This document shows positions 47,999 through 50,951 of a DNA stretch of 64,000 bases, in pieces. The notes under the pieces were generated by a model. That model saw only the letters and a program-made list of their open reading frames with translations. It did no database searches and was not told the origin of the DNA. The position numbers were made by a program, and so were the translations under genes. The stretch's first letter is position 1. Every line of letters begins with the position of its first letter. This DNA is from Pirellulales bacterium (GTDB lineage Bacteria; Planctomycetota; Planctomycetia; Pirellulales; JADZDJ01). The DNA lies in the NCBI GenBank assembly GCA_963820835.1, contig CAWGBP010000036.1:32046-96045 (forward strand). Direction: 5' to 3'.

Positions 47999-49256
47999 TT
48001 AATTCACATCAATCGCGCCGGCAATCGATTCCGCGACGTGAAGCAAAAACAAATCTTCGCCGAAGCTGCCAATCAGCGATAGGCCGACTGGTGCCGCACC
48101 TGTGTCTGATTCGATAGTCGATAGCGGCATGGAGACTTGCGGCAAGCGGCCAATTCCGGCGATCGATGTGAGCGACAACGCCCGTTTGTAGTAATCGCCG
48201 GTGCGCTGGTCCATGCCCAGGCTCCCTTTAATGGGGGCCGACGCCGGCGTCGTGGGAATGCAAAGCAGATCGCGCGGCCCCAGGAATTTTCGCAAGCTAT
48301 GGTAATACTGTTCACGGCGCGCGATAGCCGGCGGCACGCGGCGGCGATCTAAGCTGCTCACAAGTTCAAAATTCTTGGTCGTCACTGGGCCGAACATCGG
48401 CTCTGCGTCGGCAATCCAAGAGCCAAGCGAGCCTTCGATTTCGCTCCACTGGATGACGCAATAGGTATCGAACCAGGAGTCGAATGTCATGGCGACGGAA
48501 CCGCCGACAATTCTACTCAACGATATATCACGCACCGCGGCGCCGAACAGTTTTCGCAGCCAGTCGATCGCCGGCTCATGTGCCTTTTGCACTTCCGGCA
48601 TGGCCAATTCAAAACCATCGCGGAGCAAATAGATGGCGGTTGGACGCGAGTCTCCGCTGCTTTTCGATTGCGGTGGAGCACCCAATCAGAACGCGCAATG
48701 CGCGATTGAGAATTTCCGCCGTGCGCGCATGCACGCCGACAGTATCGAATGTCGGCGCAAAGGGCATGACTCCCGCCACGGAAATAAACCCATGCGAGGG
48801 GCGCAATCCCCAAATACCGCAATTGCTTGCCGGCACTCGCACTGAGCCGCCGGTATCGCTGCCCAGGGCGAAATCGGCCAATCCGCACGCGACTGCGGCG
48901 GCCGATCCGCTCGATGAGCCCCCCGGCACTCGATCTGGCGCTTTGGGATTCAGCGGCGTGCCATAAAAATGGTTTTCGCCGATCAGGCTGAAAGCGACTT
49001 CGTCGGATACCGTTTTGCCAATGCATCGCGCTCCGTTGTAGAGCAGCTGCTCGACGCAATTGGCGTGGCTTCGCGCCGGTGGATGGGTATCGCGCCATGT
49101 CGGATTACCGCAGCCGGTCTTTCGGCCGGCAATATCGATGATGTCCTTCACGGCAAACCGCAAGCCGTCCAGCGGGCCGTCGCCGGTCGGCGCCAATTCG
49201 AATGTTTCGACAAAGGCGCCGCTTTGCTCGATAGTAATCGCTCCAGAACCAACCAT
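47999..49256 (-). CDS. amidase-signature enzyme, AMI1/indole-acetamide-hydrolase-like subfamily, frameshifted at the CCC run 48681-48683
   Basis: ORFs 48609..49256 and 47999..48685 join as ...RALRVLIG|APPQSKSS.... The Ser-cisSer-Lys signature is present: [36 protein letters not shown]. End-to-end resemblance to plant AMI1 is as I recall that sequence. The ATG lies 5 nt after the kinase stop. Confidence 0.85.
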
Positions 49257-49261
49257 TGGCT

Positions 49262-50951
49262 TTATCCTTTCGCTGCGGTTTTGCCCGTGAGCATGGCCAC
49301 GACGGCCAGCAGTTCGCCTGCATCGACGGGTTTAGTGACATGTGATTGATAACCGGCCATCATGGCGCGGCGACGGTCTTCGGTTCGGGCAAAAGCGGTC
49401 AGAGCTATTGCTGGGACAGAGCGGGTCCGACCGTCGCGCAAATCTCTGACTTCACGAATGAATTGATAGCCATCCTTTCCCGGCATGCTGATGTCGCTAA
49501 TGAGCACATCGGGCTGAAACGATTCGAGCATGCCCAAAGCTTCGTCGGCTGTGGCAGCCGTTTGGACGAGCACCTTACTTTGCACCAACAGCCGGCGAAC
49601 CACGTCGCGGGCGTCGGGCTCGTCATCCACTACCAAAACCTTCACCCCTTCCAGATCTGGCGGCGTGAACGCTTCGTGATGCCCCGTGTCGGCGCGTGGA
49701 TGGAAGCGGTTGAGTTCTTGCGATGGGTGAATTTGCAGCGGCAATTTAATCGTGAACGTCGAGCCTTGATTTTCGCCAGGGCTTTTAACAAACGTCGATC
49801 CACCGTGAAGTTCGACAATTTGCTTGACGATGGCCAGGCCCAGACCCAGACCGCCATGGCGGCGGCTGGTGGCCGTTTCCGCCTGGCGAAAGCGGTCGAA
49901 GACATAGGGCAGAAATTCCGGCGCTATGCCTTGCCCAGAATCAGCGACATTGATTTCCAAATGCGAATTCACGCGCTCCAGCGAGATTTGAATTCGACCA
50001 CCGCGCGGCGTGAACTTCACAGCATTGGAGAGCAAATTCCAGAGCACTTGCTGCAGGCGCTGGAAATCGCCCAGCGCCGGCCCTGCGCGGGTCAAGCACT
50101 TTCTGCAAACGGATTTCTTTGGCATCGGCGGCAGGTCGAATGGTGTCGATGGCGGCCTCGATCACATCCGACAGGTTCACAGGATGGACATCGAGACGGA
50201 TCTTACCCGAGATGATGCGGCTCATATCGAGCAAATCCTCGATGATCTGCACTTGGGCGCGGCAATTGCGCTCGATGGCATTGAGTGTTTCAGTGACCTC
50301 TTGCGGCTGAATCGCGCCGGCTTTGAGAAGTTGCGAATACCCCATAATGGAACTGAGCGGGGTGCGCAATTCGTGCGAAACCACCGATAGGAATTCGTCT
50401 TTGAGGCGATTTGCCCGCTCGGCCTCGCCGCGCGCGGCCCGTTCGCTGGCCAACAACTGCTCGCGTTCGTTCTCCTGGGCGCGCAATTGTCGCTCACTTT
50501 CGCGCAGCGCTTCCTCGGTCTGCTTGCGCTCTTGCACCTCGCGCGTTAGCGACGAATTCAGAATTGCCAAACCAGGCAGCTTGAGCGCTTTCGGAGTGAT
50601 AACCGCCAGGGCAACCACAGTCGACCAAGAAGCGACCGCGGTTATCAATTTCACCAGACCGCCGATCCGGTAAATTGGATGCCAAAAAATAATGGCCTCA
50701 ATCAAATGTGTGGTTCCGCAGGCAAAGATGAAGATCACAAACAACCAAAAAATCCGCGGAAATGGTACATCGCGCCGCCGTAAAACGAAGTAGGCGATTA
50801 CCAGCGGAATGGCCGTATATGCGCCAAAGATCGCCAGGTCGGAGTAAATGTGCAGCCAGCCAAGCGCCGGATCGTCGGCCCAACCGCTGCCGCAATACCA
50901 GCGTGGCGGAAAGCCGGCCGTGTCGAAAGGATTGTCAAGAATAGTTGCCAT
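49262..50951 (-). CDS. hybrid sensor histidine kinase/response regulator with an ETR1-like (ethylene-binding-domain-like) N-terminal membrane sensor; frameshifted near 50080-50095
   Basis: ORFs 49941..51107 and 49262..50125 join around ...LQKVLD(P)R|AGPALGDFQRLQQVLWNLLSNAVKFT. It has three TM helices, a coiled coil, HisKA (FLSVVSHELRTPL), HATPase (DSGQGI, GGLGLGLAIV) and a receiver (VLVVDDEPDARD...SDISMPGKDG...TKP). The start is ATG at 50951 or 50972. Confidence 0.85.

Follow-up and report, generated by a model that had tools for sequence, protein, structure and literature searches.

An ETR1-type hybrid histidine kinase gene and an AMI1-subfamily amidase gene 5 nt apart in a Pirellulales genome: probably neighbors by rearrangement rather than a functional module

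The kinase-amidase locus

Here, we describe two closely spaced, co-directional genes in a 64-kb stretch of DNA from a Pirellulales bacterium (“the window”, i.e., the whole stretch that was analyzed). Both are on the minus strand. The upstream gene (50951→49262) encodes a hybrid histidine kinase whose N-terminus carries an ETR1-type ethylene-binding domain; the downstream gene (49256→47999) is an amidase-signature gene. An earlier, sequence-only reading of this DNA had described the pair as tightly coupled, with 5 nt between the two ORFs and a Shine-Dalgarno-like motif inside the kinase 3′ end. Direct reading of the sequence confirms both features. The kinase stop codon (TAA) occupies positions 49264-49262 and the amidase start codon (ATG) positions 49256-49254, leaving 5 nt between them (49261-49257), and the motif AAGGA lies at 49269-49265 (minus strand), within the final codons of the kinase gene, 8 nt 5′ of the amidase ATG.

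Two further co-directional genes, both assigned with Pfam and NCBIfam models, are located upstream of the kinase: a frameshifted gene for a beta-lactamase-family serine hydrolase (53776-52457, minus strand) and a gene for an MFS_3/EntS-like transporter (52453-51086, minus strand). On the other side, the amidase gene is convergent with a pirin gene (47250..47944, plus strand), identified by Pfam matches to Pirin and Pirin_C_2 in two frames and by tblastn with the pirin of a related locus (L088). The pirin gene adjoins an IS4/IS5-family transposase gene (46327..47202, minus strand), in which overlapping ORFs match the Pfam domains DUF4096 and DDE_Tnp_1. Directly past the amidase stop codon is a terminator-like hairpin with a T-rich tail (47959..47973, minus strand), a weak match to a consensus pattern alone. 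A scan for promoters and terminators between 47.7 and 53.9 kb, which picked out this hairpin, returned no more sites, including sites of the hairpin kind, than expected from shuffled sequence.

A terminator cannot fit into the 5-nt gap, making it plausible that the kinase and amidase genes are on one transcript in this genome. The gap is nonetheless unremarkable, because 3 nt separate the beta-lactamase gene from the MFS gene, both located just upstream, and the spacing between the amidase gene and its upstream neighbor in related genomes (dapL; see below) ranges from a 1-nt overlap to ~40 nt. Taken alone, the 5-nt spacing suggests co-transcription, not a functional link.

Frameshifts in the kinase, the amidase, and their neighbors

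Neither the kinase nor the amidase gene is a single ORF, a feature on which the sequence-only reading was silent. Three-frame translation places one shift in the kinase gene at ~50084 (50081..50090, minus strand). The N-terminal part of the protein extends as far as “VLDPR”; in another frame, the C-terminal part restarts at “GPALGDFQRLQQV”. The sequence at the shift is ...GAC CCG CGC a GGG CCG..., where the seven orthologues compared have DPRAGPV/ILGD; most likely, 2 nt were lost from a CGCGCG stretch or 1 nt was inserted. The amidase gene shifts at a GGG run (48683-48681) where GG is expected, probably reflecting one extra G, and the pirin gene shifts at ~47795, where GG is found and alignment of homologues leads one to expect GGG. 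In all, a stretch of ~11 kb contains five split genes: those encoding the glycogen-debranching enzyme (GDE; shift at ~43375), pirin, the amidase, the kinase, and the beta-lactamase (shift at ~52885). Split genes of the same sort occur in related contigs of long-read style.

A single frameshift per gene is most likely an indel error from long reads or their assembly, and assembly error is the probable source of the shift in the kinase gene, given that five genes in the neighborhood are affected. Alternatively, the kinase, the amidase, and their neighbors could be true pseudogenes in a region that is decaying after an IS-associated rearrangement, in which case nothing here would be functional. 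The number of frameshifted genes in so short a region fits this alternative, as do the transposase gene ~1 kb away, the position of the kinase and beta-lactamase shifts outside homopolymers, and a break in synteny exactly at the 5′ end of the amidase gene (see below). However, each gene carries one indel and no in-frame stop codon, all catalytic motifs and ligand-binding residues are intact, and identity to homologues is even across each shift. Two of the five shifts are at G-runs, and those in the pirin gene (GG for GGG) and the amidase gene (GGG for GG) are typical consensus errors. Housekeeping-type genes are affected too; ilvC and the aminotransferase gene are similarly fragmented in contigs L001 and L002 (ENA samples ERZ250395xx), which are probably long-read assemblies to judge by the names of the contigs. 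We therefore consider decay of the region unlikely. With the shifts read as indel errors, the window is an example of how such errors in long-read data are masked when raw sequence is read.

Family assignment of the two proteins

The N-terminal frame segment of the kinase (residues 1-289; 50085..50951, minus strand) contains two Pfam domains, ETR1_N (PF25487; residues 30-125, 50864-50577) and HisKA (E 1.9e-18), the latter with the H-box histidine, H193, at 50375-50373. The ETR1_N match covers profile positions 2-97 of 97 and scores 119.9 bits against a cut-off of 27 (E 5.8e-35). The C-terminal frame segment (49262..50083, minus strand) contains HATPase_c (E 8e-31) and Response_reg (E 1.5e-24) domains, with the phospho-acceptor Asp of the receiver at 49495-49493.

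In AtETR1, the residues that Cu(I) and ethylene binding requires are D25, Y32, I35, P36, I62, C65, and H69, with K91 serving output. The putative ethylene-binding residues of the window kinase are D38, Y45, I48, P49, I75, C78, H82, and K101. Y45, I48, P49, and I75, the putative counterparts of the AtETR1 residues, are identical in AzoEtr1 and occupy fully conserved columns of a 10-row alignment. D38, C78, H82, and K101 align with D35, C75, H79, and K98 of AzoEtr1 (encoded on a plasmid of strain Sp7; locus L170), and in AzoEtr1 these Asp, Cys, His, and Lys residues have roles in copper/ethylene binding or receptor output (AzoEtr1 numbering and roles from PMC11819568). Judged by family, the domain is a bona fide ETR1-type ethylene-binding domain; the description “ethylene-receptor-like kinase” in the sequence-only reading is borne out by the profile match and the conserved binding residues.

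Among the kinase homologues listed (54-76% identity), ETR1_N, HisKA, and HATPase domains are found in 120/120 and a receiver in all but one; some have extra PAS domains, and many are from Pirellulales. Hybrid kinases of the ETR1 type with the complete set of ethylene-binding residues seem widespread in this order, and could interest students of ethylene perception beyond plants. A full-text literature search for ethylene receptors in Planctomycetes returned two incidental mentions only, and a search of solved structures found none for the ethylene-binding domain.

The amidase is likewise read from two frame segments. The first (48681..49256, minus strand) contains the amidase signature and the catalytic residues (Pfam Amidase, E 6e-64); the second (APPQSKSS ... 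AGAIDVN; 47999..48680, minus strand) ends at the stop codon at 48001-47999. Once frame-corrected, the protein can be aligned along its whole length with 28 homologues, and K37 (49148-49146), the cis-Ser S114 (48917-48915), and the nucleophile S138 (48845-48843) are invariant in the resulting 29-sequence alignment; the catalytic roles of these residues are presumed from FAAH numbering. The Ser-cisSer-Lys signature reported from the sequence alone is thus present. The two peptides quoted with it both exist, albeit in different reading frames owing to the GGG-run shift.

The best model for the amidase is NCBIfam NF006169/PRK08310 (416.9 bits; cut-off 391). Assignments as IaaH (165.7 bits on NF005688; cut-off 532) and as GatA (179.8 bits; cut-off 481) were rejected. 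NF006169 is also the best model for plant AMI1 from Capsella, Nicotiana, Vitis, and Nelumbo (414-437 bits, with the next-best family at ~190 bits), and over its full length the amidase shares 39% identity with Capsella AMI1. In a neighbor-joining tree of 33 sequences with 200 bootstraps, a group of AMI1 and PRK08310 proteins was split from IaaH, AtzE, and another amidase in 200/200 replicates; by contrast, the clade with the window amidase was sister to plant AMI1 in 0/200. Identity to plant AMI1 is 40-41%, versus 41-46% for members from Ochrobactrum, Paenibacillus, and Thermoplasmata. The resemblance to AMI1 proposed from the sequence alone therefore holds at the level of the subfamily, i.e., the protein is AMI1-type rather than IaaH-type, but does not extend to a specific tie with the plant clade.

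Homologues of the amidase number in the thousands, and 120/120 of those listed share 60-76% identity, several of them from Pirellulales. The matches listed span many phyla and include marine metagenomes, Dehalococcoidia, and a Thermoplasmata MAG; the genome-collection scan took in few Pirellulales, and the closer relatives came from a metagenome scan with a single protein. AMI1-likeness is a family-wide trait, common to thousands of bacterial proteins across many habitats. Because plant AMI1 scores high enough to pass a bacterial “equivalog” model, the label “AMI1-like” is uninformative on auxin in bacteria, and it should not be used to infer an auxin role there. Literature and structure searches found no characterized member of the bacterial NF006169/PRK08310 family, and the solved structures searched included none for the AMI1/PRK08310 subfamily, the nearest being biuret hydrolase (127 bits). 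A small amide, either of the (aryl)acetamide type or another primary amide, is the probable substrate.

Gene order, interpretation, and comparison with known systems

We examined 163 loci of the amidase family, of which the 127 whose upstream sequence reaches 1.8 kb or more count as informative. An ETR1_N gene was found upstream of the amidase gene in 0/127. Conversely, none of six loci with kinase orthologues (68-76% identity) has an amidase gene; neighbors vary at these loci, and the beta-lactamase and MFS genes were not found beside the orthologues. The kinase-amidase adjacency, on whose conservation the sequence-only reading had made its proposal depend, is thus seen in none of ~170 related loci.

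Most of the closest amidase relatives instead have the order LL-diaminopimelate aminotransferase→amidase←pirin, found at five close amidase loci and on the P0001 contig (64-77% identity). The aminotransferase gene of these relatives is dapL (NF004937, 651 bits; cut-off 585). A glutamine-transaminase/omega-amidase-like pathway was considered for the aminotransferase-amidase pair and set aside; the aminotransferase is clearly an LL-diaminopimelate aminotransferase, and its linkage to the amidase is therefore more likely housekeeping synteny. Pirin is kept in the window and is the only amidase neighbor conserved in close relatives; the GH63 and GDE genes lie to the same side as they do in relatives. 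Absent from the 64-kb window are the relatives’ genes for the LL-diaminopimelate aminotransferase, the radical-SAM protein, and ilvC.

We conclude, with a probability of roughly 0.8, that the kinase and amidase genes are independent members of known families that came to lie side by side through a lineage-specific rearrangement, not a functional module. The ancestral order would be that of most of the closest relatives, with the amidase gene following dapL and facing pirin; the pirin side would have been retained in the window, and the upstream side replaced by the beta-lactamase/MFS/kinase block. Given the 5-nt gap, the amidase gene would probably be transcribed together with the kinase gene, as a by-product of gene order. 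The kinase would act as an orphan hybrid histidine kinase of a family common in Pirellulales; its HisKA, HATPase, and receiver domains come after a three-helix domain of the ETR1 type, the type that binds ethylene in a Cu(I)-dependent manner. If the kinase works like SynEtr1 and AzoEtr1, binding of its ligand would modulate autophosphorylation at H193, and the phosphate would pass to the kinase’s own receiver Asp and on to partners encoded elsewhere. The amidase would be a cytoplasmic Ser-cisSer-Lys enzyme of the NF006169/PRK08310 subfamily, a large prokaryotic family that includes plant AMI1.

The sequence-only reading had instead linked an ethylene sensor to an auxin-type amidase. Such a lineage-specific unit, in which one transcript would tie amide hydrolysis (e.g., of indole-3-acetamide, IAM, or phenylacetamide to auxins) to ethylene sensing, is consistent with the short gap that has no space for a terminator, the Shine-Dalgarno-like motif in the kinase 3′ end, the full set of ligand-binding residues in the ethylene-binding domain, and the place of the amidase within the AMI1 subfamily. 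We reject an ethylene-to-auxin module because the pairing is found in none of the ~170 related loci, and consider a lineage-specific unit very improbable. Sharing a sensor’s transcript does not imply a response to the sensor, the amidase family is common among organisms that have no link to plants, and no IaaM-type amine-oxidase domain was found among ~30 window ORFs scanned. Even plant AMI1 enzymes prefer phenylacetamide, and 25 mM IAM does not saturate them (PMC4844348). The absence of conservation counts against an ancient module and is compatible with a recently acquired regulatory link; the closest genome compared has ~77% amino-acid identity, and the arrangement may be conserved and meaningful inside the window’s own genus. 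A newborn hormone cross-talk unit confined to this lineage, in which a rearranged single transcript autoregulated by the phosphorelay gives an alga- or plant-associated bacterium ethylene-responsive amide hydrolysis, perhaps yielding indole- or phenyl-acetic acid, is likewise very improbable. As a module, the pair carries little weight, being unconserved and giving no sign of ethylene-auxin cross-talk.

The two genes can each be compared with described systems. AzoEtr1 of Azospirillum brasilense Sp7 and SynEtr1 of Synechocystis are experimentally validated bacterial ethylene receptors, and both share with the window kinase an N-terminal three-helix ethylene-binding domain and a histidine-kinase output. 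The domain of the window kinase is 45% identical to that of AzoEtr1 (residues 9-131). AzoEtr1 has a PAS domain, whereas the window kinase lacks one and has a fused receiver, making it a hybrid kinase; SynEtr1 has a phytochrome-like/GAF photosensory module that the window kinase lacks. A REC-only response regulator gene adjoins AzoEtr1 and two of the orthologue loci (L171 and L173), but none is located beside the window kinase. For the amidase, plant AMI1 (an IAM/phenylacetamide hydrolase) is of the same length class (~420 aa), with the same catalytic triad and best model; it is, however, no closer to the window amidase than are distant bacterial members, and never its sister. Bacterial IaaH (tms2/iaaH, of the iaaM-iaaH pathway) belongs to the same amidase-signature superfamily, but an iaaH-annotated protein of pEST4011 is 29% identical to the window amidase and falls outside the AMI1/PRK08310 group. 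The bacterial and archaeal NF006169/PRK08310 family has the same sequence features; the window amidase differs from its closest relatives only in its upstream neighbor.

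Layout and frame changes of the kinase-amidase pair

The hybrid histidine kinase gene runs on the minus strand from an ATG at 50951 to a TAA at 49264-49262, and the amidase gene follows on the same strand, from an ATG at 49256-49254 to its end at 47999. Read from the sequence, the gap between them is 5 bases, and an AAGGA motif (49269-49265, minus strand) is positioned 8 nt upstream of the amidase ATG; the coordinates and spacing in the sequence-only reading were right. Upstream of the kinase gene are beta-lactamase and MFS genes with 3 nt between them. The kinase and amidase genes probably share a transcript in this genome, and that transcript possibly extends to the beta-lactamase and MFS genes. 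Sharing a transcript with a sensor gene is not the same as being controlled by that sensor.

Neither the kinase nor the amidase is a single ORF in the window sequence, a point absent from the sequence-only reading. The kinase frame changes at ~50084, where the window has GAC CCG CGC a GGG CCG and seven orthologues have DPRAGPV/ILGD; the amidase frame changes at a GGG run (48683-48681) within a variable linker. Frame-corrected by one step each, both align with their homologues from end to end. Also split are the pirin gene (47250-47944) at ~47795, where the window has GG and alignment with homologues predicts GGG, the glycogen-debranching-enzyme (GDE) gene (41767-43783) at ~43375, and the beta-lactamase-family hydrolase gene (53776-52457) at ~52885, making five single-indel breaks in ~11 kb.

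These frameshifts are probably assembly errors of the long-read consensus indel type. Genuine pseudogenes next to an IS4/IS5-family transposase (46327-47202, minus strand) are an unlikely alternative. The transposase consists of overlapping DUF4096 and DDE_Tnp_1 ORFs and is flanked by the pirin gene and a hypothetical gene; the amidase 3' end is ~1 kb away from it, and the synteny break at the amidase 5' end ~2 kb. Consensus error is favored over decay because the breaks are single indels, in-frame stops are absent from the split genes, the catalytic residues are all intact, two of the five breaks fall in G-runs, and the ilvC and aminotransferase genes are similarly fragmented in related contigs (ENA samples ERZ250395xx, with contig_NNN names that suggest long-read assemblies). 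Since the frameshifts resemble long-read indel error, gene calls throughout the window need caution. Overlapping ORFs at 61042-62665, which have no Pfam match, may hide another frameshift; they are downstream of an ECF-type sigma factor gene (56840-57412, plus strand) and a nearby gene (58194-61298, minus strand) whose 1034-aa product has a secretin domain at its C-terminus. Elsewhere in the window, one very long ORF spans 2048 aa (24660-30806, minus strand).

Gene neighborhoods of the two families

Among the matches listed, the closest relatives of the amidase (64-77% identity) are at loci L088, L086, L001, L002, and L121, and on the P0001 contig. In all six, the amidase gene is directly preceded by a class-I/II aminotransferase gene and followed by a pirin gene that converges on it. 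NF004937 identifies the aminotransferase as LL-diaminopimelate aminotransferase (651 bits; cut-off 585), the product of a housekeeping gene of lysine biosynthesis, dapL. The distance of dapL from the amidase gene is 6 nt in L088 and ~40 nt in L001 and L086, with a 1-nt overlap in L002. The contigs that reach farther upstream (L001, L002, L088, and P0001) also have ilvN, ilvC, and a radical-SAM gene there. The co-directional block that is conserved in these close relatives from Pirellulales (L088 537-7131; also L001, L002, and L086) consists of ilvN, ilvC, a small ORF, the radical-SAM gene, dapL, and, last, the amidase gene. L143, another close locus (a partial match, 76% identity), has neither dapL nor a kinase gene upstream. 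Beyond the closest clade, the upstream gene differs from locus to locus: by eye, that of three Verrucomicrobia loci is a glyoxalase-like ORF, and other loci have unrelated ORFs there.

The window keeps the pirin gene, and its GH63-like and GDE genes are on the same side as in the relatives; nowhere in the 64 kb do dapL, the radical-SAM gene, or ilvC occur. Together, the retained pirin side and the missing genes place a synteny break exactly at the amidase 5' end. Genome and metagenome scans listed 163 loci of the amidase family, 127 of them with at least 1.8 kb of upstream sequence, and an ETR1_N domain occurs at none of the 127. For the kinase, six loci with orthologues at 68-76% identity were compared; their neighboring genes, e.g., fucosidase, pta-ackA, sugar ABC transporter, GH43, and ketoacyl synthase genes, are unrelated, and an amidase-signature gene is present at none of the six.

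The sequence-only reading had proposed a coupled ethylene-sensor/auxin-type amidase module, and had held that adjacency conserved in no related genome would refute it. No related genome examined has the adjacency, and the module is unsupported. We consider the pair a lineage-specific juxtaposition (probability ~0.8); with 0/127 amidase loci and 0/6 kinase loci, a real functional unit is very improbable. The kinase and amidase are each new members of known families, and would have two independent functions.

Family placement of the amidase

The amidase has a Pfam Amidase match and the Ser-cisSer-Lys signature, as K37, cis-S114, and S138. The only NCBIfam cut-off it passes is that of NF006169 (PRK08310 "amidase"), with 416.9 bits against 391. 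Identity as a bacterial indoleacetamide hydrolase (IaaH) was rejected (165.7 bits against 532), as was identity as GatA (179.8 bits against 481). Authentic plant "amidase 1" sequences served as the AMI1 test set. NF006169, although typed as a bacterial "equivalog", admits four of these, from Capsella, Nicotiana, Vitis, and Nelumbo (P0241, P0326, P0295, and P0271), as their best match (414-437 bits; next family ~190); the model therefore cannot separate AMI1 from the prokaryotic family. Over its full length, the window amidase is 39% identical to Capsella AMI1 (E 2e-85).

In a neighbor-joining tree of 33 sequences, with annotated IaaH (pEST4011), AtzE, and a pRiA4 amidase as outgroups, AMI1 and PRK08310 members split from the outgroups in 200/200 bootstraps. 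The plant sequences, monophyletic in 200/200, nest among bacterial members, and the window clade is their sister in 0/200. Identity is 40-41% to plant AMI1 and 41-46% to most of the distant members compared, e.g., from Ochrobactrum, Paenibacillus, Paraburkholderia, and a Thermoplasmata MAG. Thus, the AMI1 resemblance noted earlier stands at the subfamily level but not as a special kinship with the plant clade. Homologues number ~7,900 at E <= 1e-10, and the matches listed include AMI1/PRK08310 members in Verrucomicrobiota, Proteobacteria, Bacillota, Dehalococcoidia, and marine metagenomes; an archaeal member (L057 7001-8098, Thermoplasmata archaeon MAG) is 45% identical to the window amidase in the trimmed alignment. 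Being "AMI1-like" is shared throughout a very large prokaryotic family. Moreover, plant AMI1 enzymes act preferentially on phenylacetamide, and indole-3-acetamide at 25 mM does not saturate them (PMC4844348), so subfamily membership is no predictor of an auxin role. The window protein is a putative cytoplasmic amide hydrolase.

The kinase as a putative ETR1-type receptor

The kinase has ETR1_N (PF25487, E 5.8e-35), HisKA, HATPase_c, and Response_reg domains. The reference was AzoEtr1 of Azospirillum brasilense Sp7, an ethylene receptor validated by experiment, taken as a 525-aa ORF from the plasmid record that matches the published numbering D35, C75, H79, and K98 (PMC11819568). In the alignment, these residues correspond to D38, C78, H82, and K101 of the window kinase. 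The Tyr, Ile-Pro, and Ile that complete the seven required ligand-binding residues are also kept, at what we take to be the equivalent AtETR1 positions, and the H-box His193 and receiver Asp are present. On every sequence test applied, the frame-corrected kinase qualifies as a bacterial receptor of the ETR1 type; the ETR1_N domain, ligand-binding residues, His193, and receiver Asp make it a putative receptor and bear out its earlier description as ethylene-receptor-like.

This is not a rare family. Each of the 120 homologues listed (54-76% identity) has ETR1_N, HisKA, and HATPase domains, and 119 have a receiver; Pirellulales, Lacipirellula isolates among them, supply many of these homologues. 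The searchable literature has essentially no discussion of ETR1-type receptors in Pirellulales, where, judged by sequence, such receptors with their binding residues intact seem to be common, a point of mild interest. Ketoacyl-synthase/PKS-type genes adjoin the ETR1_N kinase gene at two loci (L003 7720-9000, convergent; L172 6014-9710, co-directional), which may be coincidental.

By analogy with SynEtr1 and AzoEtr1, the window kinase would be an orphan sensor in which ethylene at a Cu(I) site modulates autophosphorylation, and phosphate would pass by phosphorelay to the fused receiver and on to partners encoded elsewhere. Unlike AzoEtr1 and the kinases at L171 and L173, it has no REC-only response regulator gene nearby. 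At those two loci, stand-alone REC-only regulators (L171 6419-6817, 132 aa; L173 5947-6300, 117 aa) are encoded no more than 1 kb from the ETR1_N kinase gene, an arrangement resembling the Azospirillum pair of AzoEtr1 and its response regulator, AzoRR.
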